Assembly (NCBI GenBank): GCA_965261595.1
Contig: CBDHDG010000005.1
Coordinates: 416,001 to 480,000 of the forward strand
Source of the DNA: a bacterium
GTDB lineage: Bacteria > UBA8248 > JACPRG01 > G963555815
DNA length: 64,000 nt
Reading direction: 5' to 3'
Shown: one piece after another, positions 9,849 to 53,716 of the stretch
How positions within the stretch are numbered: the first letter of the stretch is position 1
How the letters are laid out: every line of letters begins with the position of its first letter
The notes under the pieces: generated by a model
What the model saw: only the letters and a program-made list of their open reading frames with translations
What the model was told of the DNA's origin: nothing
The model's database searches: none
Position numbers and translations under genes: made by a program

Positions 9849-9880
9849 CCAAGCCACTCGAAACCGCAAGGAGACAGGGC

Positions 9881-12997: not shown

Positions 12998-13000
12998 CTC

Positions 13001-13272: not shown

Positions 13273-13313
13273 GACGTTGCCTTTTTCATCCTCTTTTCTG
13301 CTATCTTCCGGGT

Positions 13314-21675: not shown

Positions 21676-21939
21676 TTTGTTTGCTCCAAAGGAATATGGG
21701 AAAACATAATCTGTATTATAGCCGCCAATGGGGCGGAGGGCCACCTCCGGATTATCCCCGTTCGGGGGGAGGAGGTCCGGCGGGACGATGGATGCGGCTT
21801 TCTGCTAAAATATCATGCGACGTTCGACGAAATCCCGGCCCGGGGCCGGACCCCGCGTCGGGTTCTCCGGGTCTCGGAATCTCTCCCCGGTAGAAGCAGG
21901 ATGGAGGCGCCCGTGAATACCGGGGAAGAAAAGCGCGCG

Positions 21940-29574: not shown

Positions 29575-30446
29575 AGCCCTTCGAGGTCATCGCGCCCGAT
29601 ACGGTCGAGGAGGCCGTCGAGGCGCTGGGGCACTACGGCGAATCCGCCCGGGTCATCGCCGGCGGGACGGCCCTGGCCTTGCTGATGCGCCAGGGCCTCT
29701 ACCGGCCCAAGGCCCTCGTCAACCTGAACGGGGTTCAGGGGTTTCGCGGGATTCGGGGAGATGCGGACGGCGGGGTCTTCATCGGTCCGCTGACCCCGCA
29801 CCGGGAGATCGAGCGGGACCCACTCCTGGCCGAACGGTTCCCCGCGCTGGCCGGGATGGCCCGCCATGTGGCCAATCCCCAGGTGAGGAACGTGGGGACG
29901 ATCGGCGGCAACCTCTGCCATGCCGACCCCGCTTCGGACCCGCCCACGGCCCTCATCGCGGCGGGCGCGGAGATCGCCGTCCTGGGTCCGGCGGGAGCGC
30001 GCTGCCTTGCGGCCGAGGACTTGTTCCGGGGATATTACGAGACATGCCTCGGCCCGGACGAGGTGTTGACGGGGATTCGGCTCCCCGCGCCCGAGCCGCG
30101 CTCGGGGATGGCGTACTTGCGGTACACGACGACGACCGAGGAAGACCGGCCCTTTGTCTGTGTGTGCGTCCGGCTGAAGGTGGGCGAGGGCGGGAGGCGG
30201 TGCGAAGACGCGCGGGTCGCCGTCGGCGCGGCGGGGCCGGCGCCCGTCCGGGCGATCGGCGCTGAGGAGGCGCTCCGGGGCGAGGACCTCTCCGAGGAGC
30301 TTTTGGCCGCCGCCGCCGAGCGCGCGATCGAGGGGATCGACCCCATCGGTGACGTCCGGGGCCCGGCGTCCTACCGGCTCGAGATGGTCAAGGTGTTCTT
30401 CCGCCGGGCCGCAAGCGCGGCCTGGACATCGGCGAAGGAGGCGTAG
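29571..30446 (+). CDS. FAD-binding subunit (CoxM/XdhB-like)
   Basis: [22 protein letters not shown]. Confidence 0.93.
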
Positions 30447-30931
30447 TGGAGGGGAAAGTCGATCACACGATCCGGTTGACGGTCAACGGCGAAGCCGTCG
30501 AGGAGACGGTCAAGTCCTCCGAGCTGCTGGTCGAGGTCATCCGGCGCCGTCTCGAGCTGACCGGAACCAAGCGGGGCTGCGAGAGCGGCGTCTGCGGGGT
30601 CTGCACGGTTGTTTGCGACGGCGCCGCCGTCAAGTCCTGTCTCCGGTTCGCGTTTCTGGTGGACGGCGCGGAGATCTTGACCGTGGAGGGGCTGGCCGAG
30701 GGAGAGGACCTTCACCCGATCCAGCAGGCGTTTTTGGAGAAGACGGGCATGCAGTGCGGCTTCTGTACGCCCGGCATGCTGATGACCGCCGTGGCCTTCC
30801 TGGCCGAGAACCCCGACCCCACGGAGGAGGAGATCCGCGACGCCCTCGTGGGGAACCTCTGCCGCTGCACCGGTTACGTCAACATCATCGCCTCGGTCCA
30901 TGCGGCCGCCGAGGCGCTTCGGTCGGGATAA
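30446..30931 (+). CDS. 2x[2Fe-2S] subunit (CoxS/XdhC-like)
   Basis: [33 protein letters not shown]. Confidence 0.95.
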
Positions 30932-31541: not shown

Positions 31542-32161
31542 TAACTTTCCTTGCCTAACAACAAATCGGACCACATGAGACCACATTCTACAGAATCGAG
31601 TCAGCGTACACGAACCCTTTATTATGGCGACAATTTGCCTGTCTTGAAAGACATGCCGGATGACTCCGTTGACCTGATCTATCTGGACCCGCCATTCAAT
31701 TCAAAAAAATCGTACAACATAATCTACCCTGACGATCTCGGACAGGTTCAGGCTTTCGAAGATACTTGGATATGGACGCCAGAATGCGACTCCTTGCTGG
31801 ATGAATTGGGAAGGGACGCTGATCTGTTCGGTCATCGTCGCGCTGTTCATCTTTTGGATAGCTTGGTTGAAGGTTTGGGCAAGACTAAGCAAATGTCCGC
31901 CTATCTCGTAAATATGTCGGCTAGGCTCATTGAAATGTATCGGCTGCTCAAACCCACTGGTTCGATCTATCTTCATTGCGACCCTACCGCTTCTCATTAT
32001 CTCAAGATCATGATGGACGCGATTTTCGGGGGTGAGAATTTCAGGAATGAGATCGTTTGGAAACGCTACGGTGCACACAATGATGTAGGTCAGGGTCCCC
32101 CGCTCTAGGGTTTTGTTGGACACTCGATTGATCCATGATTCATGGAGAAAGGGGTGTCGCG

Positions 32162-32548
32162 ATGAACGAACAAAAGCAAGAGGGGGCTTTGGCGGAGGGC
32201 GCCCGCAGGGCGAACGGAGCCAAGGCCCCAGGGCATCGCAGTGAGCGGGGTCGGTTCTCCTGCCAGCGCAAGCGGGAGGCGGTCCTGCGTCTTTTGCGGG
32301 GCGAGAGCCTGGAGACGCTCTGCCGCGAGTTGGGCACGACAGCGGCTCGGCTTTCCGCCTGGCGCGAGGCGTTCCTTCGCGGGGGCGAGGCGGCGCTCAA
32401 AGCCCGCCCGGCGGATGAGCGGGCCGAGGAGAACGCCCGGCTCAAGGCCAAGGTGGGCGAACTCACGATGGAGGGCGAGGTCCTGCGGGAGAAGATCGAC
32501 CGCCTGGAGGCCGGCCGCCCTTTAGCCGGCAGGAGGTGGAGGCGATGA
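32162..32548 (+). CDS. IS3 OrfA (HTH plus leucine zipper)
   Basis: RKREAVLRLLRGE...WREAF...LKAKVGELTME. Confidence 0.88.
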   Translation: MNEQKQEGALAEGARRANGAKAPGHRSERGRFSCQRKREAVLRLLRGESLETLCRELGTTAARLSAWREAFLRGGEAALKARPADERAEENARLKAKVGELTMEGEVLREKIDRLEAGRPLAGRRWRR

Positions 32549-33453
32549 GTCAGGCCCGCTTCACCTCCACGGGCAGAGCCTACGGCCTGAAGCGGGTGTG
32601 CGCCCTTTGGGGCTTGGCGCGCTCCACGGTCTACGCGCAACGGCGGCGAGAGGCGGTCCCCGTTCATGAACGCCCCACGCCCAATAAGCGCGGCCCTGTG
32701 GGCCCGTGCACCGATGCGGAACTCCTCGGCCACATCCGGCAGGTCCTGGAGGACTCTCCCTTCCATGGCGAGGGCTACCGCAAGGTGTGGGCGAGGCTGC
32801 GCTTCGCGGGCATCCGCACCAGCAAGGAGCGGGTGCGTCGCCTGATGCGGGAGGCGGGGCTTCAGGCCCCCCACCGGGTGGGCAAACCCCGAGGTCCCAA
32901 GGCCCACAACGGGACCATCCGCACCGAGCGGCCCGACCGAATGTGGGGCACGGACATGACGACGACGGTGACCACCGAGGAGGGGATGGCCTCGGTGTTC
33001 GTGGCGGTGGATCACTGCTCGGTGGACTGCGTGGGGATCCATGCGGCCAAGAGCGGCAACCGCTTCGAGGCCCTGGAGCCGATCCGGCAGGGGGTCGCCG
33101 AGCGCTTCGCCGGCTTGGAGGCGGATGTCGCCGAGGGGCTTAAAGTTCGTCACGACCACGGCCCCGCCTATCTGTCCGATGACTTTCAGCGGGAGATCGC
33201 CTACCTGGGCATGACCAGTTCGCCCAGCTTCGTGCGGGCGCCCGAGGGAAATGGCTACTGTGAGTGGTTTATCCGCATCTTGAAGGAGAATCTCCTGTGG
33301 GTGCGCTCTTTCGCCACCGTAGAGGAACTGCGGTGGGCGCTGCTTGAGTTCAAGAACCTGTACAACCATCATTGGATTCTCGAGGGCTACGGCTACCGAA
33401 CGCCGGCCCAGGCAAGGCAGGAAAAACTCGCTCAAGTTGCGGAGGCCGCATGA
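32545..33453 (+). CDS. IS3 OrfB DDE integrase-like transposase
   Basis: GYRKVWARL, WGTDMT, RHDHG, PEGNGYCE...LKE; ATGA overlap with orfA. Confidence 0.9.
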   Translation: MSQARFTSTGRAYGLKRVCALWGLARSTVYAQRRREAVPVHERPTPNKRGPVGPCTDAELLGHIRQVLEDSPFHGEGYRKVWARLRFAGIRTSKERVRRLMREAGLQAPHRVGKPRGPKAHNGTIRTERPDRMWGTDMTTTVTTEEGMASVFVAVDHCSVDCVGIHAAKSGNRFEALEPIRQGVAERFAGLEADVAEGLKVRHDHGPAYLSDDFQREIAYLGMTSSPSFVRAPEGNGYCEWFIRILKENLLWVRSFATVEELRWALLEFKNLYNHHWILEGYGYRTPAQARQEKLAQVAEAA

Positions 33454-35418: not shown

Positions 35419-37296
35419 TCAGTTGCCGGGCTTCTTGGCCTTGACCTTGAGCTTCCGTCCGAATGGATGGACTTCCCCGGGGCCGTGTCCGACGGGGAAC
35501 TTCTTCTTGGCCAGCCTCTTCCGGAGCGCCCGGGTCGCCTTGATGTCCACTTCGTATTCCAGCGCCTCGGGATCCCCCACCTTGATCGCCACGCCGTAGA
35601 TCTTTCGCGCGACCTCCAGGGAGATGAGCTCGTTCATCACGTCGTCCAGGACGAGCTGGGGGTCCCGTTTTCTCGGGTCGCCGAAACCTCCGCCGCCGTT
35701 GCTCCGAAAGTTGATCACGTCGCCGGGGCCGATCGGGACGCTCGCGGCGTGCATCCCCAGGCGGCGCTCCCGTTTGGTTCCCTCGTTGAGGGTCAGGGCG
35801 TTGGGCCCGCCGTTCAGTCCGCCGGACAGGCCGTAAGGGGTGACCTCCTCCCGGTCACCGTGGATGGTGATGACCCCCTCTCCCCACATCCGGTAGTGCC
35901 GCTGGAAGCCGAGACCGCCCCGGAACTTGCCGTGGCCGCAGGAGTCGGGGAGGACTTCGGCCTTGAGATAGGTGTACGGATACCAGCGCTCCAGGACTTC
36001 GACCGGCTGGTTGCAGGCCCCGCCGGCGAACATCATCATCATATAGCTGGGTCCGTCCCGGTCGACGCGCGCGCCCTGGCCCCCCTCCATCCAGTTGTAG
36101 GAGACGAACTGGTTCCCCGACCTCGGGTGCTTGCCGCCGCAGACGCAGTTCTCGAGATTTACCGTTCCGGCGTGAATCTGCGTCGGGTCCACCTGGGCCA
36201 AGGGCTGCGCCCAGCAGGCCATGACCGCGGCGTCCACCTTTTCATACGTCCCCGCGCAATACCCGGCCATGGGCGATGGGGGCAGGATGTGGACGGTGCT
36301 CCCCGGTATGCTCAGCAGCTCGATGGACCGGGTGATGCCGTTGTTGAGCGGGGTGAGGTGGGGGAAGCAATGAAGCGTGCCGTCGAACGCCGCCGAGATC
36401 AGCCCCGGATGCGTCAGGCCCGTGGGTCCCCTGGGCGCCGGATCGCTCTTCCGGAAGTCGAGGGAGGCCTGGTCCCCCCGGATGGTGAGGACACAGTGGA
36501 TCTTGACCCTGGGGTGGTCGGGATGCCCCTCGTCCATGTCGGAGTAGTCCGTGAATTCATACCTCCCGTCGGGCAGGCGGGAGACCTCGTGGCGGAGGAG
36601 CCGCTCGCCGTGGTTCATGGATTCCTCGAATGCCCGCGTGACGGTCTTGGCGCCGTACTTCTCCGCGTACTCCTGGATTCGCATCTCCATGACCTTCACG
36701 GCCTGGTACTGGGCCGCGAGGTCGCCCATGCGGTCGTGCGGGACGCGCACGTTCCAGCGGATCAGGTCGAAGCTCGACTTGACGGGCCGGTCCTGGTCGT
36801 AGAGCTTCATGGTGGGGACCAGGAGCCCCTCGGCGTGCACCTCGCGGGCGTTGGGGTTGAACGTCCCGGGAACAGGTCCGCCTATGTCGGTCCAGTGGCA
36901 GTTGGCGATGGTGAAGGCGATGTGCTCGCCCCGGTGGAAGACCGGCCGCACGAGGCGGACGTCCTGGGTGTGGGTCCCGCCCCGGTAGGGGTTGTTGAAC
37001 ATGTAGACGTCCCCCGGCCGGAAATCCTCTTCCACGTCCTCGATGATGCTCTGAACCGTCCCTTCGAAGGTCCCGAAGTGAGGGGTGTGGTCCCGGGTTC
37101 CGTGGGCGACGAGCCGGCCGTCGGCCGTCAACATGGAGACCGAGAAATCACGGCCCTCGGTGATGGCCGGGGCGTAGGCGATGCGCTCGATCATCGCGCT
37201 GCCCTGGGTGCAGAGGTCGCGAAACGCGCTGCGAAGCACCTCGAAGGTGATGCGGTCCATCTCGGGGAGGGGGGTTTTCTTTTTCGACTTGGCCAT
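35419..37296 (-). CDS. hydantoinase B / oxoprolinase family protein
   Basis: DRITFEV, EGRDFS, NNPYRGGTHTQD, HWTDIGG, NQPVEVLE, GGGGFGDP. Confidence 0.92.
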   Translation of the reverse strand: MAKSKKKTPLPEMDRITFEVLRSAFRDLCTQGSAMIERIAYAPAITEGRDFSVSMLTADGRLVAHGTRDHTPHFGTFEGTVQSIIEDVEEDFRPGDVYMFNNPYRGGTHTQDVRLVRPVFHRGEHIAFTIANCHWTDIGGPVPGTFNPNAREVHAEGLLVPTMKLYDQDRPVKSSFDLIRWNVRVPHDRMGDLAAQYQAVKVMEMRIQEYAEKYGAKTVTRAFEESMNHGERLLRHEVSRLPDGRYEFTDYSDMDEGHPDHPRVKIHCVLTIRGDQASLDFRKSDPAPRGPTGLTHPGLISAAFDGTLHCFPHLTPLNNGITRSIELLSIPGSTVHILPPSPMAGYCAGTYEKVDAAVMACWAQPLAQVDPTQIHAGTVNLENCVCGGKHPRSGNQFVSYNWMEGGQGARVDRDGPSYMMMMFAGGACNQPVEVLERWYPYTYLKAEVLPDSCGHGKFRGGLGFQRHYRMWGEGVITIHGDREEVTPYGLSGGLNGGPNALTLNEGTKRERRLGMHAASVPIGPGDVINFRSNGGGGFGDPRKRDPQLVLDDVMNELISLEVARKIYGVAIKVGDPEALEYEVDIKATRALRKRLAKKKFPVGHGPGEVHPFGRKLKVKAKKPGN

Positions 37297-37342
37297 GCGG
37301 CGGGGCTCCTCCAGCGTCATGTCACTTGCGTGACGGATCGGT

Positions 37343-39400
37343 TCAGCGTCCGTTGGGCGTGATGATCAGGTTCAGGTAGGTGTCCACCGTAGCGGCGGCG
37401 CCGGGCGGCAGAACCGTCGTCGAGTCGGGCTGCTCGATGATCGCCGGCCCGCGGAGGCGGTTCCCGACGCCCAACCCTTCCCGGTCATAGATCTTCGTCC
37501 GCGTAAATCCGCCGGCTTCCCGGAAATAGACCCGCCGGGACCCCTTCAAGGCGCTTTTCAGGCTGCCTTTCTTCCGGGACTTCCGCAGGCTCCCTTTCGG
37601 GACGACGCCGACGGCCGAGAGACGCGCGTTGCTGATCTCGACCTCGGCGTACTCGTCGGGGATCCGGTAGCCGAACTCTCTCTCATACGCCGTGACGAAT
37701 CCGTTCACGATGTCGTCCAGCGTCCCTTTCGTGACCCGGCCCGACGGCACGGGGATCGTCATGTATTTGGACTGGGGGAAATACTTCACGTCGGCGAGCC
37801 GGTGGAGCTCGACCCGTTCGAGCGGAATGTTTTCGCCCTTGAGGGTCCGCCGCGCCTCCGCCTCCAGGTCGCGGTACACCCGGGCCAGCTCGGTGTGGGA
37901 GAGCTGGTCCGACTTCTTCAGGATGGGCCGGATGAAGTCGTGGCGGACGTCCACGCGAAGCGCGCCGAAGGCCGAGGTGACCCCCGGATAGCGCGGGACG
38001 ATGACCTTGGGGATCTTGAGCTCGGCGGCCAAGGATACGGCGTGCATCGGTCCCGCCCCGCCGAATGCGACGAAGGCGAAGTCCCGGGGGTCGTACCCCC
38101 GGACCACGCTGATCAGCTTGACGGCGTTGATCATGTTGGCGTCGGCGAGCCGCAGGATTCCGTCGGCGGCCTCCTCGGCCGACATGCCCAGCGGACGGGC
38201 GATTTTGTTCTCGACCGCCTGTCGGGCCCGGACCGGATCCAGGGACATGGCGCCGCCCAGGAACTGATTCGGATCGATGACGCCGTGGACGACCTGGGCG
38301 TCCGTGTTGGTGGGTTCATCGCCTCCCCGGCCGTAGCAGGCCGGACCCGGGAAGGCGCCGGCGCTCTTCGGGCCGTTCTTGAGGGATCCGCCTTCGTCGA
38401 TCCAGGCGATGGAGCCGCCGCCCGTTCCGATGGTGGTGATGTCCACGCACGGGAAGCGGATGGGGATCGTGAATTCGACCTTGAAACCCGGTTGGAACAG
38501 CGGCTGTCCCTTCCAGACCAGGGACAGGTCCGCGCTCGTCCCGCCCATGTCGAACGTGATGAGGTTCTCTTGTCCGGCGAGCGAGCCGATGTACGCCCCG
38601 CCGACCACGCCGCCGGCGGGGCCGGACAGGCAGGTCCGGGCGGGGATGGTCCGCGCGAGATGGGTGCTCATGACCCCGCCCCCCGAATGAATGATCAGGA
38701 CGTCGCCGCCGAACCCCCACGCCCGGGTCCTGGATTCCAGCTCGGTCAGATACCCTTCGAGGATGGGCAGGAGGTACGCGTTGACGGTGGTGGTGCTGGT
38801 CCGCTCGAACTCGCGGATCTCTGGGAACACCTCCGAGGAGGTGCAAAGGAAGACCCCGGGAAGGAGCTTGGAGAGAACGGCCTTCGTCCGTTTCTCGTGA
38901 TCCGGATTCATGAAGGCGTTGATGAAGCAGACCGCCACGCTCTCGATCCCGCGCTTTTTGAAGATCCGGGCGATGCGCTTGAGCTCGCTTTCCTTCAGGG
39001 GCGTGAGGACTTCCCCTTCGAAACTGATCCGCTCCGGCACGGTCTGCCGGCTGTACCGGGGGACCAGAGGCGGGGCGGGGTCCCAGGTCAGGTCGAACAC
39101 ATCGGGGCGCTCCCCCCGGGCGCCTTCCAGGACGTCCCGGAAGCCTTCGGTGGTCACCAAGCCCGTCTTGGCGCCTTTGCGCTCGAGAATGGCGTTTGTG
39201 GCGATGGTCGAGCCGTGGCGGAAGGTGGTCATGTCCTTCGGGTCCAGGCCGGTTTTCTTCAGGACCTCCATCACGCCCTCGATGAACGTGGGGGGCGTGG
39301 AGGGCATCTTGTGGTTGGTGACCTGGCCGGTTTCCTCGTTGAGACACACCAAGTCCGTAAACGTTCCGCCGATGTCGATTCCCACGCTGTAACGGGCCAT
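37343..39400 (-). CDS. hydantoinase A / oxoprolinase family ATP-binding subunit
   Basis: GIDIGGTFTD, HGSTIATN, SGPAGG, DMGGTS, GTGGGS, FGGAGPMH. Confidence 0.93.
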   Translation of the reverse strand: MARYSVGIDIGGTFTDLVCLNEETGQVTNHKMPSTPPTFIEGVMEVLKKTGLDPKDMTTFRHGSTIATNAILERKGAKTGLVTTEGFRDVLEGARGERPDVFDLTWDPAPPLVPRYSRQTVPERISFEGEVLTPLKESELKRIARIFKKRGIESVAVCFINAFMNPDHEKRTKAVLSKLLPGVFLCTSSEVFPEIREFERTSTTTVNAYLLPILEGYLTELESRTRAWGFGGDVLIIHSGGGVMSTHLARTIPARTCLSGPAGGVVGGAYIGSLAGQENLITFDMGGTSADLSLVWKGQPLFQPGFKVEFTIPIRFPCVDITTIGTGGGSIAWIDEGGSLKNGPKSAGAFPGPACYGRGGDEPTNTDAQVVHGVIDPNQFLGGAMSLDPVRARQAVENKIARPLGMSAEEAADGILRLADANMINAVKLISVVRGYDPRDFAFVAFGGAGPMHAVSLAAELKIPKVIVPRYPGVTSAFGALRVDVRHDFIRPILKKSDQLSHTELARVYRDLEAEARRTLKGENIPLERVELHRLADVKYFPQSKYMTIPVPSGRVTKGTLDDIVNGFVTAYEREFGYRIPDEYAEVEISNARLSAVGVVPKGSLRKSRKKGSLKSALKGSRRVYFREAGGFTRTKIYDREGLGVGNRLRGPAIIEQPDSTTVLPPGAAATVDTYLNLIITPNGR

Positions 39401-39669
39401 TGTTTCTCCTTGAGGGCGTCGGGCCGCCCGGCGGCCCCGCCGGGGCCGCGAGGGCAAGCCATCATCCGGCCTGCCCGGGACGGGCCGGGCCATTCGGGGC
39501 TTATTCTCAATGGACTGGAGTCGAACGAAGCGAAAGGTCCGCCTCTATCGAGGGCGGTATTGTTACATTCCGACGTTCGCGAAGTCAACAAATTCGGATG
39601 ATCCGATGAAGACCGGCTTGCTCTTTCCCGCAGGTGGAAAGTCCTGAGGAGCGGTGGCTCCGTTGACCG

Positions 39670-41824: not shown

Positions 41825-43429
41825 TCATCCCTCCGGGGTCGATCCCTCCCTCTCCTCGGGCGGTCCGTATCCCCCTCCGCCGGAGGTCTCCATCAGGATG
41901 ACATCCCCCTCGGTGAGCGGGAGGCTTTCCTTTCCGCGGATCGGCCGCTCGCCGGGGCCGGGGTTCAGGGTGACGCGGAACGTCTGGCCGGGCTCGCCGC
42001 CGAACGCGCCCCAGGGGGGGACCTGCCGCCTTTCGAGCATGGTCGTGACGCGCGCCTCGGAGGCCAGCATCCGGTAGCGCCGCCGGATGCCGAGGCCCCC
42101 CCGTCTTCGCCCGGCCCCCGCGCTTCCGTCCCGCAGCGCATACTCTTCGACCCGCATGGGATACTCGGCCTCGAGGACCTCGATGGGGGTGTTCATCACA
42201 TTGCTCATGTGTACCCGCGTGGCGTTGCTCCCGTCCCGGTGGGCGGCCGCGCCCGCGCCGCCGCCGTGGACTTCGTAGAGGATGAACGTCGTGCCGTCCG
42301 CCTTCTTTCCGCTGAACAGCGTGAGACCCGAGGTCGCCGGCCCGCCCGCGGTGATCCGATCGGGCAGGACCGGGGCCAGCGCCCGGAAGACGGCGTCCAC
42401 GATCACCTGGGACGTCTCGTGGTTTCCCCCGACCAGCGGGGCCTCCCGGCCCGGGTTGACCAAGGTGTTCTCGGGCGCGTGGACGGCGAGGGGCCGGCAA
42501 CACCCGTCGTTCATGGGGATGCCCCGGCCCACGAGGACGCGCATGCTGTAAAAGACGGACGCCGCCGCGATGAAGGGGGTCGTGTTGATGGGAAAGGGGA
42601 CCGGGGGGGACGTGCCGGTGAAGTCGAACGCCGCCCGGTCCCCCTCGATGCGGATGGCCAGGCGGATGGGCAGAGGCGCGCCCCCTTCCTCCATGCTGTC
42701 CATGAACTCCTCCGCCTCGTACAACCCGTCCGGGATGGCGGCGATCTCCCGCCGCATCCGGGTCTCCGATTCCTCCTGCATCCGCTCGAACGCCGCCAGG
42801 GTCGTCGCGCGCCCCCACTGGCCGAAGATGTCGAACAGGCGCGATTCCGCCACGGTCTGGCCAGCGTATTGCCCGAGGATGTCGCCCTCCCGCTCTTCCG
42901 GGTTCCGGACGTTCTCCAGAATGAAATCCAGCGTTTCCCGAACGGGACGGTCCGCCGAAAATATCTTGATCGGGGGGATTCGCAACCCCTCCTGATAGGT
43001 CTCCGTGGCGTCCGGAACGTAGCTGCCGGGCAGCGCCCCGCCGGTGTCCGGCCAGTGGGCGAGACAGACGGCGAAGGCGGACAGCGCTCCGTCGTAAAAC
43101 ACCGGCCGGATCGCTTTGACGTCGGGCAGGTGGTTGCCGCCGATCTCCGGCAGGTTCGTCAGGTACACGTCGCCGGGACGCAGGTCTTCCGGCGGGACGA
43201 CCTTGAGAAACTCCTTCACCGTGAAGGCCATGACCCCCAGGTGGACGGGCGTGTCCTGGCCCTGGGCGATGACCCGCCCCCGGGCGTCGGTCAGGACGCA
43301 CGAGAGGTCCCCCGCCTCCTTCAGCAGGGGCGCCCGCGCCGAGCGCATGACGATGAAGCGCATCTCCTCCGAGGTCGCGAGGACGGCGTTGCGGATCAGC
43401 TCCAGGGTGACGGGATCGATGCGGCTCAT
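41825..43429 (-). CDS. hydantoinase B / oxoprolinase family protein
   Basis: IDPVTLE, EAGDLS, GGNHLPD, HWPDTGG, NTPIEVLE, GGGGYGPP. Confidence 0.92.
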   Translation of the reverse strand: MSRIDPVTLELIRNAVLATSEEMRFIVMRSARAPLLKEAGDLSCVLTDARGRVIAQGQDTPVHLGVMAFTVKEFLKVVPPEDLRPGDVYLTNLPEIGGNHLPDVKAIRPVFYDGALSAFAVCLAHWPDTGGALPGSYVPDATETYQEGLRIPPIKIFSADRPVRETLDFILENVRNPEEREGDILGQYAGQTVAESRLFDIFGQWGRATTLAAFERMQEESETRMRREIAAIPDGLYEAEEFMDSMEEGGAPLPIRLAIRIEGDRAAFDFTGTSPPVPFPINTTPFIAAASVFYSMRVLVGRGIPMNDGCCRPLAVHAPENTLVNPGREAPLVGGNHETSQVIVDAVFRALAPVLPDRITAGGPATSGLTLFSGKKADGTTFILYEVHGGGAGAAAHRDGSNATRVHMSNVMNTPIEVLEAEYPMRVEEYALRDGSAGAGRRRGGLGIRRRYRMLASEARVTTMLERRQVPPWGAFGGEPGQTFRVTLNPGPGERPIRGKESLPLTEGDVILMETSGGGGYGPPEEREGSTPEG

Positions 43430-45453
43430 GGCTTCATCCGGAGGATCAGGCGCCCCCGGCCGTCCACCGTGAGCGAGCGGCCGGGCGGCAGGACCGTGAC
43501 GGACCATTCATCCTCGACGACGGCCGGCCCTTCGACCCGGTCGTCCGGGCCCAGGGCGGCGCGGTTCAGGATGGGCGTTTCAATCCGCTCGCCGTCGAAA
43601 TCCACCTCGCGGCGGCCCGCTTCGCGCTCCGCCGCCGCGTCCGGGCGGCGCTCCCCCGCGGTCCGCGTTTCCGTTGTCACGACGGCGGCGACCCGGACGT
43701 TCACGCACTCCACGGCCTCTTCCGTCACGTAGTGGTAGAGCGCCTCGTGCTCCCGATCGAACGCGCCCCGGACCTCGGCGGCCGACCAGCCGTTCACCCC
43801 GGTCAGGGGGATCTCGATCTCGTAGTTTTGCCGTTTGTAGCGGAGGTCCAGGGAGGGCTGGACCTGGATCGAATCCGGCGCGCACCCCTCTTCGATGAGG
43901 AGGTCCCGGGTGGCCCCCAGGAGATCATCCCAGAGGGGTTTCAGCGCCTCCGGCGAGAGGTCCTCCAGGAATACAGGGTGGGTCCTGACGGCCTCGTAGC
44001 GCAGGTCGGACGTGAGGCACCCCAGGGCCGAGAAGACCGAGGAGTCGGCCGGCACGATCACGGTCTCCATGTCGAGCGCCGCCGCCAGGGATGCCGCATG
44101 GACCGGCCCCACGCCTCCGTAGGCCACGAGCGCCCCTTCGCGAACGTCGCGGCCCCGCTTGATCGAGACGAGCCGGAGCGCGCCCAGGACGTTCGCCTCG
44201 GCGATGGCGACGATGCCCCGCGCGCTCTCCTCCAGGGTCATCCCCAGCGCCCCGGCGAGGCGGCCCACCGCTTCTTCCGCCGCCTCGCGGCGCAGGCGAA
44301 TCTTCCCGCCCAGGACGGCGTCGGGATTGAGACGGCCGAGGAGCAGGTTGGCGTCGGTCAGCGTGGGCTCCGTTCCCCCGAGGCCGTAACAGGCCGGTCC
44401 CGGGTTCGCGCCCGCGCTTCGGGGGCCGACGTGGAGGGCCCCCACGTCGTCCGTCCAGGCCAGCGAGCCCCCCCCGGCGCCGATGCTCTCGACCGCGACC
44501 GACCGCAGCCGGAAGGGCTGGCCGGCGACCTGTCTTTGGGCCATGAGCTCGGCGCGGCCGTTTTCGATGAGGCAAACGTCCGTTGTCGTGCCCCCCATGT
44601 CCAGGGCCAAGGCGCGGTCGCACCCCAACTCCCGCGTCAGGGCGCAGACCGCCGTCACGCCTGCCGCCGGGCCGGACATGACGAGGTTCAAGGGCTTTCG
44701 CCGCACGGCGGATTCGGACATCATTCCGCCGTTGGACTGGACGAGGTGGAGATGGGCGTCCCGGCCCGCCAGGTCGGTGTCCAGGTGAGAGAGGAAATCC
44801 GAGACGGTGGGCATCAGGTAGGCGTTCAGAACGGTCGTGAGCGCGCGCTCGTATTCCCGGAACTCGGCGTTGACTTCGGACGAGAGGCTGACGTGGTCGA
44901 ACGCCTCCCGCAGGGCGTCGCCCAAGGTCCTTTCGTGCGCCGGATTCGCGTAGGCGTGGAGCAGGCAGACGGCCACCGACTCGACCTCGGCGTCCTTGAG
45001 CCGCCGGATCAGGTCCGGGATCTCGTCGGTTCGGATGGGCGTCAGGACCCGGCCGGAGACGTCCAGCCGCTCGGCGATCTCGAAGCAGAGGTCCCGGGGG
45101 ACGAAGGGCGGCTGGCGGGAAGGCTTTTGGATCTCGTAGATATCGTCCCGCGACTGCCGGGCGATTTCGAGGAGGTCGCGAAATCCCCGTGTGGCGATCA
45201 GGGCCGTTCGCGCCCCCCGCCGTTCCTCCAGCGCGTTGGTGGCCACGGTGGTGCCGTGGACGATCTCCAGTCCCCGCAGGCCCCCGCCCGCGTCTTGAGC
45301 CACCCGTTCGAGGACGTGGAGGAGCGCCGCCGCCGGGCGGGCCGGATCGCTCGGGACCTTGAAAACCGTGGAGGTCCCGTTCGGGGAAAGGGCGACGACG
45401 TCGGTGAACGTTCCCCCGACGTCCACGCCGATCTTCCAGGAGGGTTGAGTCAT
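43426..45453 (-). CDS. hydantoinase A / oxoprolinase family ATP-binding subunit
   Basis: GVDVGGTFTD, HGTTVATN, SGPAAG, DMGGTT, GAGGGS. Confidence 0.93.
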   Translation of the reverse strand: MTQPSWKIGVDVGGTFTDVVALSPNGTSTVFKVPSDPARPAAALLHVLERVAQDAGGGLRGLEIVHGTTVATNALEERRGARTALIATRGFRDLLEIARQSRDDIYEIQKPSRQPPFVPRDLCFEIAERLDVSGRVLTPIRTDEIPDLIRRLKDAEVESVAVCLLHAYANPAHERTLGDALREAFDHVSLSSEVNAEFREYERALTTVLNAYLMPTVSDFLSHLDTDLAGRDAHLHLVQSNGGMMSESAVRRKPLNLVMSGPAAGVTAVCALTRELGCDRALALDMGGTTTDVCLIENGRAELMAQRQVAGQPFRLRSVAVESIGAGGGSLAWTDDVGALHVGPRSAGANPGPACYGLGGTEPTLTDANLLLGRLNPDAVLGGKIRLRREAAEEAVGRLAGALGMTLEESARGIVAIAEANVLGALRLVSIKRGRDVREGALVAYGGVGPVHAASLAAALDMETVIVPADSSVFSALGCLTSDLRYEAVRTHPVFLEDLSPEALKPLWDDLLGATRDLLIEEGCAPDSIQVQPSLDLRYKRQNYEIEIPLTGVNGWSAAEVRGAFDREHEALYHYVTEEAVECVNVRVAAVVTTETRTAGERRPDAAAEREAGRREVDFDGERIETPILNRAALGPDDRVEGPAVVEDEWSVTVLPPGRSLTVDGRGRLILRMKP

Positions 45454-45492: not shown

Positions 45493-47841
45493 TCAGGCAC
45501 CCGAGCCGGCCGCCGATCGGGCGGCCAGGGCGGACAGGACCCGCTCGGGCGTGACGGGAAGCTCCCGGACCGGCTCGCCCAGGGCGTCGGCCACGGCCAG
45601 GGCGATCGCCGAGGCGGCGGGGGTGAGGGCGGGCTCGCCGATCCCCTTGGCCCCGAACGGCCCCAGTCCGCTGCCGGATTCCAGGATCTCGGTCTTCACG
45701 TCCGGCGTGTCCAGGGCCGTGGGCAGCAGGTAAGTTTCCAGGTTTTCGGTTTCGGTGACGCCGGCTCGAAGGACAACCTCCTCCATCAGCCCCTGGCCGA
45801 GACCCATGTAGGCCCCGCCTTCCATCTGGCCTTCGACGCTGGTCCGGTTCACGGCTTTGCCCACGTCGAAGCAGGACGAGAGCCGGCGCACGATCACCTC
45901 GCCGGTTTCGGCGTCCACGGCCACTTCCGCGCCGACGGCGCCGAACGTGTAATCGTTGAACGCCCGGCCCCGGCCCGTCGCCGGGTCGATGGGATCGCCG
46001 CCGGGGGCGTCCCATTTGGACAGGTTGCCCAGCGGCTTTCCAGTCGCGGCCATCCGGCGGACGACCTCGGAGAGTCCGAGCCCCCGCTCGGGAAATCCCC
46101 GCACGGCGGCGCGTCCGGCCCCCAGCTCGATCTCCTCGGGCGAGACCTCGAGCATGTCCGCCGCCACCTCCAGCAGGTCCCGGCGGATCTGAAAGCATGA
46201 TTCCAGGATGGCGTTGCCGCTCATCATGAGCTGTCGGGTGGCGGTGGTCGTCCCGGCCAGGGGGGTGAGTTGGCTGTCCGCCCGCTGGACGGTGATTCCG
46301 CCCGGGTCGACGCCGAGGACTTCCGAGGCCAGGGTGGCCATGGAGGAGGCCTGTCCGCCTCCGTGGTCCGGGGTCCCGGTGCGGATCACCAGGCTCCCGT
46401 CCATCTCGAACCCGACCCAGGCCTGGGCGCTGTCGTGCGTCCAGTGCATGCGCCCGTAGGGGGTGATGCCGGCGGCCACCCCCCGGCCGATCAGGGGCCG
46501 GCCCGGCGCCGCTCCGCTCCCGGACGGGCCGTCCTGCGAAAGCGCCTCCCGGCAGCGCCGGGCCGCCTCGGCCAGCTCCACCTCCGAGCGGATGTCTTCC
46601 CCGGTGCCGAGGGCGTCTCCTTTGCGGAGGTAGTTGATCTCCCGGAACCGGCCTGGGTCCATGCCGAGGGCGCGGGCCGCCGCGTCCATCTGCATCTCGT
46701 AGGCGAAATTGGACTGGAGCGAGCCAAAGCACCGCATGGCGCTGGCGAAGGTGTTGTTGGTGTAAACGCCCTTTGCGTCCACATGGACGTTGGGGATCCG
46801 GTACGGGCCGGTCGCGGTGACGGCCGAGTAGTGGACGACCCAGACGGTCAGGTAGGCGTAGGCGCCGCCGTCGGCCAGGAGGTCGGCCTCCAGGGCCGTG
46901 ATCCGTCCGTCCCGCGTCACGCCTGTTTTGTACCGCATGACGTAGGGGTGCCGCTTTCCGTGGGCGAGGATGGATTCCTCCCGTTTGTATTCCAGGCGCA
47001 CGGGCCGCCTCGTCTTCCAGGCCAGCAGTCCCAAGAAGACCTCGACGGTGACGTCCTCTTTGCCCCCGAAGCCGCCGCCCAGATAGGCGCACCGGATGCG
47101 GACCTTGCTGTCCGGAATCCCGAGGGCCTGGGCGACGTCCCGGTAGTGTTCGAGCACCTGGGTGCCCACATTGATGTTGATGACCTGGTCGTCGTCCACC
47201 CAGGCGACGCCGGTCTCCGTCTCCAGGTACGCGTGGTCGATCCACTGGGTTGTGTAGCGGTTTTCGACGATGATGTCGGCCTCGGCGAAACCGGCCTCGA
47301 TGTCGCCCCGGCGAACGGACCAATGGCAGACGAGGTTTCCGCCCTTGTGGACGCGGGGGGCGTCGGGACGGAGGGCTTCGAGGGGGTCGAACACGCCGGG
47401 CAGCGGCTCGTAATCGACCGCGACGCGGGCGAGCGCCTCCTCGGCGGCGTCCTCAGTCTCCGCGGCCACCAGGGCCACGGGCTCGCCCAGGTAACGAACG
47501 CGGTCTCCGGCGAGGATCTGGTGGAAGGCCGTGTGCGCCCCTTCGCCCGCATCGGACATGCGCCCCGGCAGACCGGCGAGGAGCTCGTTGCGCGGCACGT
47601 CTTCAGCCGTCAGGACGCAGGCCACGCCGGGCACGGCCAGCGCCGCCGTTTTGTCGATCCCGCCGATCCGGGCCGAGGGATGTTTCGCGTGGAGCACCCG
47701 GCCGACCAGGGCGTTGCGGGGGATGTCGTCGGATGCGTAGCGGAGGACGCCCCCGGCCTTGTCCACCGCGTCGTGGCGGATCATCCGCCCGCCGACCCCA
47801 TGGGGGCTTCCCCGCGTTTTCATCCGATCCTTGACCGCCAT
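45493..47841 (-). CDS. xanthine dehydrogenase family Mo-binding subunit (active-site loop AMRCFG)
   Basis: GGGFGGKE, SAMRCFGSLQ, EGQMEGG, GAKGIGEP. Confidence 0.92.
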   Translation of the reverse strand: MAVKDRMKTRGSPHGVGGRMIRHDAVDKAGGVLRYASDDIPRNALVGRVLHAKHPSARIGGIDKTAALAVPGVACVLTAEDVPRNELLAGLPGRMSDAGEGAHTAFHQILAGDRVRYLGEPVALVAAETEDAAEEALARVAVDYEPLPGVFDPLEALRPDAPRVHKGGNLVCHWSVRRGDIEAGFAEADIIVENRYTTQWIDHAYLETETGVAWVDDDQVININVGTQVLEHYRDVAQALGIPDSKVRIRCAYLGGGFGGKEDVTVEVFLGLLAWKTRRPVRLEYKREESILAHGKRHPYVMRYKTGVTRDGRITALEADLLADGGAYAYLTVWVVHYSAVTATGPYRIPNVHVDAKGVYTNNTFASAMRCFGSLQSNFAYEMQMDAAARALGMDPGRFREINYLRKGDALGTGEDIRSEVELAEAARRCREALSQDGPSGSGAAPGRPLIGRGVAAGITPYGRMHWTHDSAQAWVGFEMDGSLVIRTGTPDHGGGQASSMATLASEVLGVDPGGITVQRADSQLTPLAGTTTATRQLMMSGNAILESCFQIRRDLLEVAADMLEVSPEEIELGAGRAAVRGFPERGLGLSEVVRRMAATGKPLGNLSKWDAPGGDPIDPATGRGRAFNDYTFGAVGAEVAVDAETGEVIVRRLSSCFDVGKAVNRTSVEGQMEGGAYMGLGQGLMEEVVLRAGVTETENLETYLLPTALDTPDVKTEILESGSGLGPFGAKGIGEPALTPAASAIALAVADALGEPVRELPVTPERVLSALAARSAAGSGA

Positions 47842-47871
47842 CGAGTCCGAACCCCCGGGCAAAAGCCCCTG

Positions 47872-49122: not shown

Positions 49123-50541
49123 ATGGTGCAGGTAGATACGGTGATTCAAGGAGGTCAGGTGGTTCGGCGGGATGGGACCCGGGTTGAGGACATCGCCGTC
49201 CAGGACGGCAAGATTGTCGCCGTGGGCGACCCGGGGACGATGCCCGAGGCGAAGGAGGTCATCGACGCGGCCGGTCTCCACGTCATCCCCGGCGTGATCG
49301 ATCCTCACGTCCACCTTCAGCTCTTCAAGAACCCGTTCGAGATCAACGTCCTGACCGAGTCTCGCTCCTTCGCGGCCGGCGGCGTCACGACGGCCATCCC
49401 GATGCTTCTCAACCGGGAGGACGCGACCAAATCCTACCGGGAGTACACCCCCTGGGCCATCGACGTGGTCGAGAAGAACTCGATGATCGACATGGCCTTC
49501 AGCGCCGTTCTGGGGACGGAAGAGCAGATCGAGGACATCCCCTTCCTGGTTCGGGAGTACGGGATGTGCTCCTTCAAGTTCTACATGGCCTACACCGAGG
49601 ACGAGGCCAAGGTGTTCGGCATCATCGCCGTGGACGACGGGCTGCTTTACGAAGGGTTCAAGAAGGTGCGGGACATGATCGCCGAGGGCTATCCCTGCCT
49701 CGCCATGGTCCACGCGGAGAACATGGAGATCATCCACCGGGAAAAGAAGCGGCTCATCGACGAGGGACGGAACGACCTCAAGGCCTGGACGGACGCGCGC
49801 CCGGAGTTTTGCGAGGAGGAATGCCTGCGGCGGGCCTTTTTCTTTATCGAGGAGCTCGGCTCCCGGCTGTACGTCGTTCATCTGACCGTCGCGAAGGGGG
49901 TGGACCTGGTGCGCGAGATGCACCGCCGGGGCGTGGACATCATCGCCGAGACGTGTCCCCATTACCTCACGTACACCAAGCACGACCACGACAAGATCGG
50001 CTTCCTCGGCAAGGTCAACCCGCCGCTCCGCGACACGGTGGACCAGGAAAAGCTTTGGGAGGCCCTTCAGGACGGGACGCTCAACAACATCGGCGCGGAC
50101 CACTCCACCGTCGTCCCCCGGAAAGACAAGGTGGGCGACGGGATCTGGAACGCCATTCCCGGATTCCCGATGACCGGCTGCTCGCTCCCGGTGATGCTCC
50201 ATGTGGCGGTGCACACGGGCCGTCTGACGTTCGAGCGCCTCGTTGAGCTGACCTCGTACAACGTCGCCAAGGCCTACGGGCTGCTCCCGCAAAAAGGGGA
50301 CATCGCCCCCGGATTCGACGCGGACATTGTCCTTGTGGACCTGGAGAAGGTGCGGCACGTGACGCCGGAGATCTGGCACTCCGACGCCGATTGGAGCCTC
50401 TACGATGGTTGGGATCTCAAGGGATGGCCGGTCCGGACGATCGTCCGGGGCGTCACCGTGGCCCTGAACGGCGAGATCACCGGCACGCAGGAACACGGCC
50501 GATACATCCCCCGGAATATTCCGAAGAAGCCGGTGGCCTGA
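49123..50541 (+). CDS. cyclic amidohydrolase (dihydropyrimidinase/allantoinase/dihydroorotase family)
   Basis: PGVIDPHVH, SFKFYMAY, VHAEN, AETCPHYL, KVNPPLR, GADH. Confidence 0.9.
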   Translation: MVQVDTVIQGGQVVRRDGTRVEDIAVQDGKIVAVGDPGTMPEAKEVIDAAGLHVIPGVIDPHVHLQLFKNPFEINVLTESRSFAAGGVTTAIPMLLNREDATKSYREYTPWAIDVVEKNSMIDMAFSAVLGTEEQIEDIPFLVREYGMCSFKFYMAYTEDEAKVFGIIAVDDGLLYEGFKKVRDMIAEGYPCLAMVHAENMEIIHREKKRLIDEGRNDLKAWTDARPEFCEEECLRRAFFFIEELGSRLYVVHLTVAKGVDLVREMHRRGVDIIAETCPHYLTYTKHDHDKIGFLGKVNPPLRDTVDQEKLWEALQDGTLNNIGADHSTVVPRKDKVGDGIWNAIPGFPMTGCSLPVMLHVAVHTGRLTFERLVELTSYNVAKAYGLLPQKGDIAPGFDADIVLVDLEKVRHVTPEIWHSDADWSLYDGWDLKGWPVRTIVRGVTVALNGEITGTQEHGRYIPRNIPKKPVA

Positions 50542-52061: not shown

Positions 52062-52579
52062 GCTGGATTTCTCACCAACGCATCGGGGCGGGTGCGGGAG
52101 TCAACCGACTCTCGCCCCGCCCCTGCATTTCGGGGCTTCTACCATCAAATTCGGTGTAGGGGCCGGGGCTCCGCACCCGCCCCCCTCAAGGACAGGGTGT
52201 TCCACTCCCCTCGGTTTTCATCTCTTGGCCAATCGGTTGATCTTCAAAGAATTTCTCGAAGGAAAACCGCTGAACCGTCCTTACTTGTGAGATATCCAGG
52301 CTAGGGTCGTGTCCCAGAAACATATTCAAAAAAGTTGTCCGCGCCCCCGTCTCATTGCAGGGTTGCGCCTTCAGAAGGACCTTCGGCGCGGAACCGGCTG
52401 AAGGACCCGGACCCCCTTGTCCCTCCGTCATCTCCCTTCCCTCTTCACGGTCTTCGATGGAACGCTGTGGGAAATTTCCGGCGTTCATTTCGCGCGCCGG
52501 CATGCATGGGGATGATTCCTTCAAACGAATTGCTGTATCGTCGAGAGATGAACCCGCCGAAGGATAAACACCAGAAACC

Positions 52580-53716
52580 ATGATCACCGTCCACATGGAT
52601 GTCGTCGGAAGCCTCCTCAGACCCCCGGAGCTGCTGGGGGCGCGGGAAGACGCGGCCGGGGGGAGGCTCTCGCGGGCCGGGCTCAAGGCAGCCGAGGACC
52701 GGGCGGTGGATGCGGCCGTTGTCCTTCAGGAGAAAGCCGGGCTGGCCGTCGTCACCGACGGGGAAATGCGGCGGCTCTCCTTCCAGTCTCAGATGACCGA
52801 GGCGGTGGAGGGGTTCGGGGAGTGCGGCATCGACGCCTTTCTCTGGGGGGACTGGCGCGGCGATGAAAGGGTCGGGGACAAGGAGATCCGGCGGCCGGCG
52901 TCGCTGGGCGTCGTGGGCAGGCTTCAGCGCAAGCGCCACCTCTCGGCCGAGGAGTTCACGGTCCTTCGCGCGATCACGAGGGGAAAGCCCCTCATTCCCA
53001 AAGTCACCCTTCCCAGCCCGAGTCTCTGGATGAACTTTTGGCCGACGGATCGCCGGGTGGACGCCTATCCGACCCTCGACTCCTTCCTGGCCGACGTCGT
53101 GGATATCCTGCGCGGCGAGGTCGCCGAGCTCGTCCGGTTGGGCGCGACGTACATCCAGATCGACGCGCCCCAATACACGGCCGCGCTGGACCCGAAAGGC
53201 CGGGCCTTTTACGAGTCCCGGGGTTGGAGTGGGGGGGAGAGGGGGGAGGAATGGCTGTCGCGGGGGATCGAGATGGACAACGCCGTCATGGACGGCTTCC
53301 CGGACGTCACCTTCGGCTTTCACCTCTGACGGGGGAACCAGGCCAGCCGGTGGCTGGCCGAGGGCGGCTACGGCCGCATCGCCCGGACCGTTTTCCGGGG
53401 CGTCCGCGCCCAGCGCCTCCTACTCGAATACGACGACGAGCGCTCCGGCGGTTTCGAGCCGCTCAAAGACGCGCCCGAGGACAAGACCGTCGTCCTGGGT
53501 CTTGTCACGACCAAATCGTCCCGCCCGGAGACGGTGGAAGGGCTCTCCGCCCGCGTCCGGGAGGCCGCCCGCTACGTTCCGCTCGAACGGCTGGCCCTGA
53601 GCCCCCAGTGCGGGTTCTCCACGTCCGTTGTCGGAAACCGGATCTCCGCGGAAGAGCAGAAGCGGAAGCTGGAGGTGGTCGCCGAAACGGCCGGGGTGGT
53701 TTGGGGGGCCGGATGA
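52580..53716 (+). CDS. cobalamin-independent methionine synthase II family protein, probable selenoprotein (378 aa; TGA 53327-53329)
   Basis: VGSLLRP, TDGEMRR, IQIDAP, HL-U-RGN (family HxCRGN), LLEYD, LGLVTTK, LSPQCGF; the frame stays open after the TGA. Confidence 0.85.
53341..53359 (+). promoter_or_regulatory. putative bacterial SECIS hairpin
   Basis: Perfect 8-bp stem GGCCAGCC-GGU-GGCUGGCC starting after an 11-nt spacer from the UGA. Confidence 0.75.

Follow-up and report, generated by a model that had tools for sequence, protein, structure and literature searches.

A gene for a relative of methionine synthase II (MetE), whose reading frame is crossed by a single in-frame TGA at codon 250, is present in a 64-kb stretch of bacterial DNA (contig CBDHDG010000005.1, positions 416,001 to 480,000; hereafter, the window). 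Taken whole, the evidence makes it likely that this is a real selenoprotein gene, encoding a full-length MetE-type enzyme with selenocysteine (Sec) at the position of a presumed zinc-ligand cysteine. The case is carried by the recurrence of the TGA in 83 other genomes, the constraint on the codons that follow it, a hairpin directly downstream, and the zinc-site motif in which the TGA lies.

The frame starts at ATG 52580, the first start downstream of an in-frame stop (52565-52567), and is closed as an open reading frame (ORF) of 249 amino acids (52580..53329) by TGA 53327-53329, in the context CAC CTC TGA CGG GGG AAC. Beyond this codon, the frame remains open for another 128 codons, up to TGA 53714-53716, and encodes the motifs LLEYD, LGLVTTK, and SPQCGF; no other stop or frameshift was found across the 378 codons of the read-through frame (52580-53716). 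An earlier reading of the DNA, made without database searches (the sequence-only reading), had reported the ORF end, the H-L-TGA-R-G-N context, the 128-codon extension with its motifs, and a perfect 8-bp hairpin with a GGU loop after an 11-nt spacer; all of these were found in the sequence, the hairpin at 53341-53359. In our analyses, the read-through sequence was handled with C for U at residue 250, plus a spurious final C for the true stop.

The read-through protein matched the Pfam family PF01717 (Meth_synt_2) with 49.7 bits, against a cut-off of 21. The NCBIfam model NF005085/PRK06520 matched end to end, residues 5-375 aligning with positions 9-368 of the 368 in the profile; it scored 218.9 bits, which is below its cut-off of 313, and NF004875/PRK06233 similarly scored 196.8 bits, below its curated cut-off of 576. 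Models of full-length MetE scored low (TIGR01371, 24.2 bits versus 929.95; PRK05222, 27.7 bits versus 541), and the two-barrel MetE architecture of approximately 750 amino acids, with an N-terminal folate-binding domain, was not found in this protein of 378 amino acids. Judged by its profile matches, the protein is a single-domain “core” MetE relative outside every curated equivalog, because its NCBIfam scores lie below the cut-offs and the full-length MetE models reach only about 25 bits. The scores under both NCBIfam cut-offs mark the protein as a member of a distinct subfamily. No selenoprotein-specific model in NCBIfam release 20.0 matched the read-through protein.

Full-length relatives number in the thousands in the protein database, as all 8000 of the 8000 scored candidates had E <= 0.001. 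The best 120 of these are 369-396 amino acids long, about 67-77% identical to the window protein, and cover 97-100% of its length; each of these 120 Cys forms carries the motif H[LI]CRGN. In an alignment of 18 full-length homologs, the column of the TGA is an invariant Cys (18/18), embedded in HLCRGNQxSRWL. An AlphaFold2 model built from this alignment (predicted TM-score [pTM] 0.87, mean predicted local distance difference test [pLDDT] 80) has the MetE-type (beta-alpha)8 barrel. A Foldseek search with the model found 1YPX with E = 1e-20 (TM 0.87 on the target) and Thermotoga maritima MetE with a TMq of 0.71-0.72. The structure 1YPX, from Listeria, is also the closest solved structure by sequence (E = 2e-47).

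One genome per species, covering 185,579 species, was scanned with the degenerate pattern H-L-TGA-R-G-N-Q-x-S-R-W-L, with all synonymous codons allowed. The scan returned 83 stretches from about a dozen phyla, all in genomes other than that of the window. Going by the depositors' titles, these are metagenome-assembled genomes (MAGs) of Poribacteria (19), Dehalococcoidia and other Chloroflexota, Methylomirabilota/NC10, Acidobacteriota, Latescibacterota, Gemmatimonadales, and Tectomicrobia, with further MAGs from the Desulfobacterales and “Deltaproteobacteria”, Nitrospinota, Binatia, Planctomycetota, and Cytophagia, and in one Gammaproteobacterium. At each of the 83 loci, tblastn gave one alignment that spans the TGA, to a homolog sharing 59-71% identity with the window protein. 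In 78 loci, this alignment covers the whole protein (query 1-9 to 375-379); in the remaining ones (L034, L049, and L081-L083), it breaks off where the available DNA ends. Open stretches of 232-455 codons precede the TGA and 126-139 codons follow it in the 78 full-length loci, except in L023 and L028, whose copies (approximately 9649-10755, minus strand) contain one more in-frame stop each. In L023, this is a TAG on a Trp-like residue; L028 has a TGA in a conserved Arg column. Both copies may be decaying genes or assembly errors.

In a search with the 249-residue N-terminal part, 70 of the 120 best-matching database proteins ended exactly at ...FGFH[LIV]. The nearest of these truncated relatives are 97% (a cluster of 14 sequences), 85, 77, 77, 74, and 76% identical to the query. 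As the TGA is common to these near relatives and to the 83 loci, it is not an error peculiar to this assembly. The gene is truncated in public gene calls, and one NCBI record names the piece a hypothetical protein. In many data sets, gene callers list the piece of 242-249 amino acids as a protein, which would fit a gene with two products, in which a 249-residue N-terminal protein assembles with a separately started C-terminal protein. The first in-frame start past the TGA, however, is GTG 53534, 69 codons on, so that Glu283 and half of the barrel would be lost, and the break sits within the HxC motif, exactly at the ligand column. We find such an arrangement hardly credible.

The Sec forms and Cys forms of the family were compared on a FastTree phylogeny of 79 Sec forms and 120 Cys forms, from which the partial loci L034, L049, and L081-L083 were left out. 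The 2 forms interleave on this tree with at least 15 changes, of which at least 4 are forced by branches with a support of at least 95; the Cys set consists of the top 120 matches and is unbalanced. Such interleaving is the typical pattern of selenoprotein families. The sister of the window protein on the tree is itself a Cys form, from a Nitrospinota MAG, with 77% identity. No paralogous Cys copies were found within the 83 loci.

Selection on the 2 parts of the gene was compared in 191 pairs of Sec forms with 80-97% protein identity. The median ratio of nonsynonymous to synonymous substitution rates (dN/dS) was 0.102 before the TGA and 0.097 after it. Similarly, the median identity of the window protein to the other Sec forms was 67.6% before the TGA and 67.2% after it, and H248, L249, R251, G252, N253, E283, D285, Q343, C344, and G345 are kept in all 84 Sec forms (window included). 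On this comparative evidence, the part 3' of the TGA is translated. A pseudogene or a sequencing error, in which a TGC or TGT codon was mutated or misread to TGA, would take a single base change in the case of TGC, and L023 and L028 do carry extra stops. Against this stand the presence of the same TGA in 83 genomes and in relatives at 97, 85, and 77% identity, the low dN/dS after it, the 378 codons without another stop or frameshift, and a hairpin that is the strongest of the set in the window copy. A pseudogene or an error of this kind is therefore, in our view, very improbable.

The hairpin itself has features of a bacterial Sec insertion sequence (SECIS). A 65-nt stretch folds at -38.2 kcal/mol (z = -2.85), which was equalled by 1 of 200 dinucleotide shuffles. 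The 84 sequences align without gaps from the TGA on, and the 8-pair helix is 86.9% paired among them, a value not reached in any of 500 shuffles; sliding the helix out of register gave 14.6-69.9%. The fifth pair from the loop covaries, being CG in 71, GC in 3, UG in 2, and AU in 1 of the 79 distinct rows, and unpaired in 2. With an apical loop of GGU (or GUU) that lies 19 nt past the UGA, the geometry agrees with that of bacterial SECIS elements, which have 16-37 nt between the UGA and the apical loop (available text of PMC10778597) and a small, G-containing apical loop (available text of PMC1088965). In the window, the helix is a perfect 8 bp and the strongest of the set, at -16.9 kcal/mol versus a median of -9.8 among Sec forms.

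Codon use in the helix is strongly skewed as well. Ser256 is encoded by AGC in all 84 sequences, compared to 136 AGC and 99 AGT codons in three other AGY serine columns (Fisher p = 7e-17). For Arg257 (CGG 65, CGT 18, AGG 1), the third base is G or T in 84/84; C or A occurs as the third base in none of its 83 CGN codons, compared to 413 of 747 in ten other conserved Arg columns (Fisher p = 2e-27). These tests ignore shared ancestry, and their control columns were taken from the same sequences. Leu259 is encoded by CTG (61), TTG (17), CTC (5), and CTT (1).

Several observations speak against assigning this hairpin to selenium decoding without qualification. Most Sec forms have a short hairpin, with 5 bp, a mismatch (a 1x1 internal loop in 60 of the 79 distinct rows), and 2 bp. 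In addition, the core 5 bp of the helix are encoded by the invariant peptide S-R-W-L, and AGC CGG TGG CTT also encodes this peptide in a 59% identical Cys form, on a plasmid of Rubrobacter radiotolerans, where the hairpin is less stable (-5.9 kcal/mol). As this gene is the only close Cys-form DNA control (n = 1; other matches in the plasmid collection were at most 41% identical), the synonymous constraint may or may not be specific to Sec forms. A hairpin encoded by S-R-W-L may pre-adapt the family for repeated switches from Cys to Sec. Of the outcomes named in the sequence-only reading as refuting it, neither a TGA missing from all homologs nor relaxed selection in the 3' half was found.

The Sec machinery of the organism was not seen in the window, which counts against the proposed decoding of the TGA: selA, selB, and selD were not among the 50 window ORFs scanned, and the 64 kb contained no tRNA (selC) and no Rfam match at gathering thresholds. 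A scan of the flanks of L001-L060 (60 of the 83 loci) turned up 7 ordinary tRNAs and no tRNA-Sec. The window does contain a second selenoprotein candidate, an OsmC-like gene of 154 codons (22981-23442, minus strand), with a TGA (23281-23283) in the context G-Q-U-L-L-T, which corresponds to a UxxT motif. Its read-through product matched NF041052, “OsmC-related (seleno)protein”, with 160.9 bits (cut-off 95; profile positions 5-144 of 144), and Table 1 of PMC13188914 includes OsmC-like proteins with the UxxT motif among its selenoprotein families. This gene is indirect evidence that Sec is used by the organism. Gene callers would give only the C-terminal 96 amino acids (22978-23268) of this candidate. 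Two further ORFs, at 10456-11076 and 12530-12997 (both on the plus strand), matched NF041052 weakly, with 49.6 and 47.4 bits (cut-off 95), and have no in-frame TGA within the listed ORFs; by these matches, they are probably Cys-type paralogs.

Genome-wide reassignment of TGA was rejected. TGA is the commonest ordinary stop in the window, where it closes 18 of 30 family-matched ORFs, and recoding would therefore be specific to the site. Among the related loci, selD lies just downstream of the MetE-like gene in 18 of 83. The selD gene of L051 (7999-9129, minus strand), the only one checked in this respect, has an in-frame TGA of its own, in TCG-U-AAK, so that both operon neighbours would need Sec decoding. 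Read-through of the UGA without selenium, by a near-cognate tRNA (Trp or Cys) and aided by the hairpin, would account for a window in which no Sec machinery was seen, and stable downstream structures can promote read-through in general. It would leave unexplained the invariant Cys position, the OsmC-like gene of a curated family with a TGA at the known UxxT site, the selD that follows the gene in 18 of the 83 loci, and the SECIS spacing and small G loop of the hairpin. We consider it quite improbable.

The TGA falls on a residue that would bind zinc in MetE-type enzymes. E. coli MetE binds zinc via His641, Cys643, Glu665, and Cys726, and homocysteine via Ser433, Glu484, and Asp599 (available text of PMC7857596). 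In an alignment of the family hidden Markov model (HMM) to E. coli MetE, S11, E62, D195, and C344 align to Ser433, Glu484, Asp599, and Cys726, respectively, and C344 was also aligned to the PDCG Cys of Candida albicans Met6. Among the Sec forms that cover the column, E62 is kept in 79/79 and D195 in 83/83; residue 11 is Ser in all 79 rows with a Ser codon there, and is invariant in the 18-homolog alignment. The substrate is probably homocysteine, because the homocysteine-binding triad of MetE is kept as Ser11, Glu62, and Asp195. The zinc motif His-x-Cys...Glu...Cys is likewise present and invariant, as H248, U/C250, E283, and C344. C250 and C344 are the sole invariant Cys residues in the 18-homolog alignment, E283 and C344 are spaced by 61 residues, exactly as Glu665 and Cys726 are in E. 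coli MetE, and strands 244-249, 279-283, and 338-342 of the model end at or beside H248/C250, E283, and C344, respectively.

Two alignments disagree with this assignment. The family HMM places C250 on Cys645 of E. coli MetE, two residues off the ligand Cys643, and E283 off Glu665, and the profile alignment to 3RPD is likewise shifted around HxC. What supports the ligand assignment is thus the motif, the spacing, and the model, which together make residue 250 very probably a zinc ligand, provided that the protein is made. The proposal of the sequence-only reading that Sec serves as a zinc ligand has its support in the invariant H248/E283/C344 motif and the strand ends of the model, and not in direct alignment to E. 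coli MetE, which is two residues off at HxC and misses Glu665. The features of the gene are listed in Table 1.

Table 1. Positions of the MetE-like gene and its presumed functional elements in the window.
Feature	Position	Strand	Remarks
MetE-like (Meth_synt_2) putative selenoprotein coding sequence	52580..53716	+	378 codons including one internal UGA, plus terminal TGA stop
In-frame TGA, codon 250, read as Sec (proposed)	53327..53329	+	Cys in HxCRGN of homologs; TGA in 83 other genomes
His248 codon, presumed zinc ligand (His of HxC)	53321..53323	+	Invariant in 84/84 Sec forms and in the 18-homolog alignment; end of predicted strand 244-249
Glu283 codon (LLLEYDD), presumed zinc ligand	53426..53428	+	Invariant in 84/84; last residue of predicted strand 279-283
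Cys344 codon (SPQCGF), putative zinc ligand equivalent to Cys726 of E. coli MetE	53609..53611	+	HMM alignment; invariant in 84/84
SECIS-like hairpin	53341..53359	+	GGCCAGCC-GGU-GGCUGGCC; 8-bp stem, 11 nt past the UGA (spacer 53330-53340)
True stop codon TGA	53714..53716	+	Homologs terminate (...VWG) within a few residues of the same point

ORFs within 7 kb of the gene were clustered over all loci, and recurrent clusters were named with Pfam and NCBIfam. Among these were EgtD (TIGR03438, 368 bits versus a cut-off of 291), the selenoneine synthase SenA (NF041186, 515 versus 420), the selenosugar synthase SenB (TIGR04348, 401 versus 300), and SelD (TIGR00476, 350 versus 125), as well as a betaine-type ABC transporter with its binding protein fused to the permease. 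By tblastn against the available flanks, SenB was found in 22 loci, SelD in 18, SenA in 17, and EgtD in 14, with at least one of these in 36 of the 83. The gap between the end of egtD and the MetE-like start is at most approximately 65 nt in 11 loci, which belong to several phyla, and SenA starts 25-61 nt past the MetE-like stop in 9 loci. The most complete version of this association is the cluster of L039, on a Poribacteria chromosome, where egtD, a betaine-type ABC ATPase, the fused binding protein/permease, the MetE-like gene (Sec), senA, selD, and senB lie on one strand within 9 kb (5564-14561, minus strand). In L031, senA, senB, the MetE-like gene, and egtD are contiguous, and 18 Poribacteria loci share the order amidohydrolase (PF04909), MetE-like gene (Sec), selD, senB. 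This link to selenoneine clusters is new and was absent from the sequence-only reading.

A SulP-family permease with a STAS domain adjoins the gene in seven Dehalococcoidia loci (L012, L024, L041, L043, L060, L073, and L077). A putative selenate transporter occurs in a subset of sen clusters, according to the available text of Kayrouz et al. (bioRxiv 10.1101/2022.04.13.486033). In L005, from a Methylomirabilis MAG, a TRZ/ATZ-family deaminase (4186-5490, plus strand), distantly like methylthioadenosine/S-adenosylhomocysteine (MTA/SAH) deaminases (117 bits versus a cut-off of 779), and a pyridoxal phosphate (PLP) aminotransferase (6296-7474, plus strand) lie upstream of egtD; the aminotransferase and a haloacid dehalogenase (HAD) hydrolase recur in 5 NC10-type loci. 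One further recurrent cluster, “c11”, comprising an ORF of 227-258 amino acids on the opposite strand that mostly overlaps or abuts senA, had no family match and was set aside as probably spurious.

The association does not extend to every member of the family, which weighs against a general link to selenoneine synthesis. In 47 of the 83 loci, no sen or egt gene was found in the available DNA, which in several cases includes only short flanks. The window does contain egtD, encoding the L-histidine N-alpha-methyltransferase (1357-2361, plus strand; TIGR03438, 351 bits versus 291), so that the organism can make hercynine. This egtD is 50 kb off, however; the window copy of the MetE-like gene has no adjacent sen gene, and egtB, senA, senB, and selD were not found in the 64 kb. 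Since 36 of the 83 relatives have such neighbours and the window copy has none, membership of a sen cluster holds for part of the family, and not for this copy. Conversely, of four plasmid records with senB, the three sen clusters inspected (Methylorubrum, Hydrogenophaga, and Burkholderia) had no MetE-like gene within 8 kb. No sen genes were found near the Rubrobacter Cys form.

From these data, we infer Sec insertion, the binding of zinc by Sec, the substrate, and the physiological role as follows. The ribosome would pause at UGA-250, and the hairpin 11 nt on would bind SelB with Sec-tRNA(Sec), upon which Sec would be inserted, as is standard in bacteria. In the (beta-alpha)8 barrel, the selenolate of Sec would then replace the first Cys of a zinc site formed by His248, Sec250, Glu283, and Cys344. 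The zinc would bind and deprotonate the thiol or selenol of the substrate, probably homocysteine or a selenium analogue, for transfer of a methyl or alkyl group, as in MetE. The donor is not obvious, because the protein has no folate-binding domain. That a selenolate is a softer, more readily re-reduced ligand is a reasonable guess for the use of Sec over Cys.

A different function for the residue is conceivable, in which Sec250 acts mainly as a reactive nucleophile or relay and not as a holder of zinc, either by way of a Se-methyl intermediate or by attack on a selenoxide or selenenic acid intermediate of selenoneine synthesis. The position of the gene directly between egtD and senA in several phyla would suit such chemistry, and Sec is the reactive residue in most known selenoproteins (PMC13188914, section 7). 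However, all 84 Sec forms keep H248, E283, and C344, and no Cys position besides C344 and residue 250 is invariant, so that a MetE-type His/Cys/Glu/Cys site needs residue 250. In addition, Cys forms are far more numerous and the sister of the window protein is one of them, indicating that the function does not require selenium-specific chemistry. A Sec250 that acts mainly in this way is thus unlikely.

Our confidence in the physiological role is lower than in the selenoprotein reading. As the preferred role, we propose that a zinc-bound Sec enzyme would remethylate homocysteine and thereby sustain the three methylations by EgtD that depend on S-adenosylmethionine (SAM). Placement of the gene between egtD and senA suggests such a support role for hercynine synthesis, and the deaminase of L005, as annotated from its sequence, gives a weak hint in the same direction. 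As a second choice, the enzyme may methylate a selenol of the selenoneine pathway, namely selenoneine or the selenosugar. Se-methylselenoneine is a known metabolite. Hercynine synthesis uses three SAM per molecule, as stated in the available text of Kayrouz et al. (bioRxiv 10.1101/2022.04.13.486033). In its fullest form, our proposal is that of an unlisted, widespread selenoprotein family that holds Sec on a catalytic zinc for non-redox methyl transfer and is a dedicated accessory of selenoneine synthesis, supplying methionine for EgtD or methylating a selenol; this combination is tentative, and we would put it at somewhat under an even chance. If true, one operon would use selenium twice, as Sec in the enzyme and in the metabolite, with both supplied by the adjacent selD.

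The sequence-only reading had suspected that this family is not among the established selenoproteins, and the literature consulted agrees. In the May 2026 inventory of 119 families and subfamilies (PMC13188914), Table 1 has no entry for Meth_synt_2, a MetE-like protein, or methionine synthase, and the text does not contain “homocysteine”, “MetE”, or “PF01717”. The families of Haft & Tolstoy 2025 (mSystems) were covered through that same table. Neither methionine synthase nor PF01717, homocysteine, or cobalamin appears in the main text and one supplementary file of the BSepDB paper (57,630 selenoproteins, 111 families), and the deep-Sep paper does not mention the family. The main text of the sen preprint (bioRxiv 10.1101/2022.04.13.486033) does not contain “methyltransferase”, “MetE”, or “synthase II”. 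Full-text literature searches, whose scope excluded subscription journals and the Global Ocean Sampling (GOS)/Sargasso supplements, found no paper describing the family, and as far as the literature found shows, the reaction of the subfamily has not been studied. Deng et al. 2026 (Cell Rep) described “potentially novel candidate selenoproteins” from groundwater MAGs, as quoted in PMC13188914; several of the 83 loci are groundwater MAGs.

In nearly all known selenoproteins, Sec has a redox or nucleophilic function. A Sec on the catalytic zinc of a thiol-alkylating enzyme would offer a natural system in which to study how a selenolate ligand affects zinc Lewis acidity, ligand exchange, and resistance to oxidation. 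Truncated pieces of the gene are abundant in protein databases as hypothetical proteins or short methyltransferases, so that a correction would mend many annotations. Reconstitution of the selenoneine pathway has so far involved only four enzymes. The link to egtD, senA, senB, and selD is a new lead on this pathway and suggests an extra, as yet unstudied step or a supporting reaction in bacteria of marine and groundwater habitats, for instance Poribacteria and Methylomirabilota.

Elsewhere in the window, a dense set of catabolic genes is found at 19387-21744 (minus strand), 27253-30931 (plus), 35419-39493 (minus), 43426-45453 (minus), 45493-47862 (minus), and 49123-50541 (plus). It includes three large subunits of molybdenum hydroxylases of the xanthine dehydrogenase/4-hydroxybenzoyl-CoA reductase type, one of which is accompanied by FAD and Fe-S subunits. 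Hydantoinase/caprolactamase-like subunits A and B and a dihydropyrimidinase also belong to the set, which looks like an island for the degradation of N-heterocycles. An IS3-family transposase (32135-32548 and 32536-33453, plus strand) has overlapping orfA and orfB in the usual layout for programmed frameshifting, and a fragment of an adenine DNA methyltransferase (31551-32108) lies just upstream of it.

Among known systems, the closest are the Cys forms of MetE II (1YPX; NF005085/PRK06520 and NF004875/PRK06233), which share the length, the fold, and the motifs HxCRGN, LEYDxERSG, and SPQCGF, but have Cys in HxC where the gene described here has a TGA (Sec). E. coli MetE has the same catalytic-domain fold, with Ser433, Glu484, Asp599, and Cys726 identical. 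In contrast, the protein described here is half its size, lacks the N-terminal barrel, has an insert of approximately 11 residues between HxC and Glu, and would have Sec at the position equivalent to Cys643. The core methionine synthases MesA-MesD similarly consist of a single catalytic domain without a folate-binding domain, with a His/Cys/Glu(Asp)/Cys zinc site and the homocysteine residues Ser/Glu/Asp, and are not reported with Sec in the available text of PMC7857596. The relation to MesD is only distant (3RPD, E = 7e-12 with the family profile). No corrinoid protein was among the 16 recurrent neighbour clusters annotated, nor did Pfam name a DUF1852, which we take to be MesX, among them.

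Replacement of a metal-contacting Cys by Sec, with a SECIS within the ORF, is shared with FdhA (Mo/W), [NiFeSe] hydrogenases (Ni), and arsenite methyltransferase (PMC13188914), the last of which is also a methyl-transfer enzyme. Unlike in these proteins, the metal here would be zinc, which is redox-inert and would be both structural and catalytic, and the enzyme family is a different one. According to PMC13188914, binding of atoms or groups, zinc among them, is predicted for about 20% of selenoprotein families, and a zinc-binding Sec would therefore not be without precedent.

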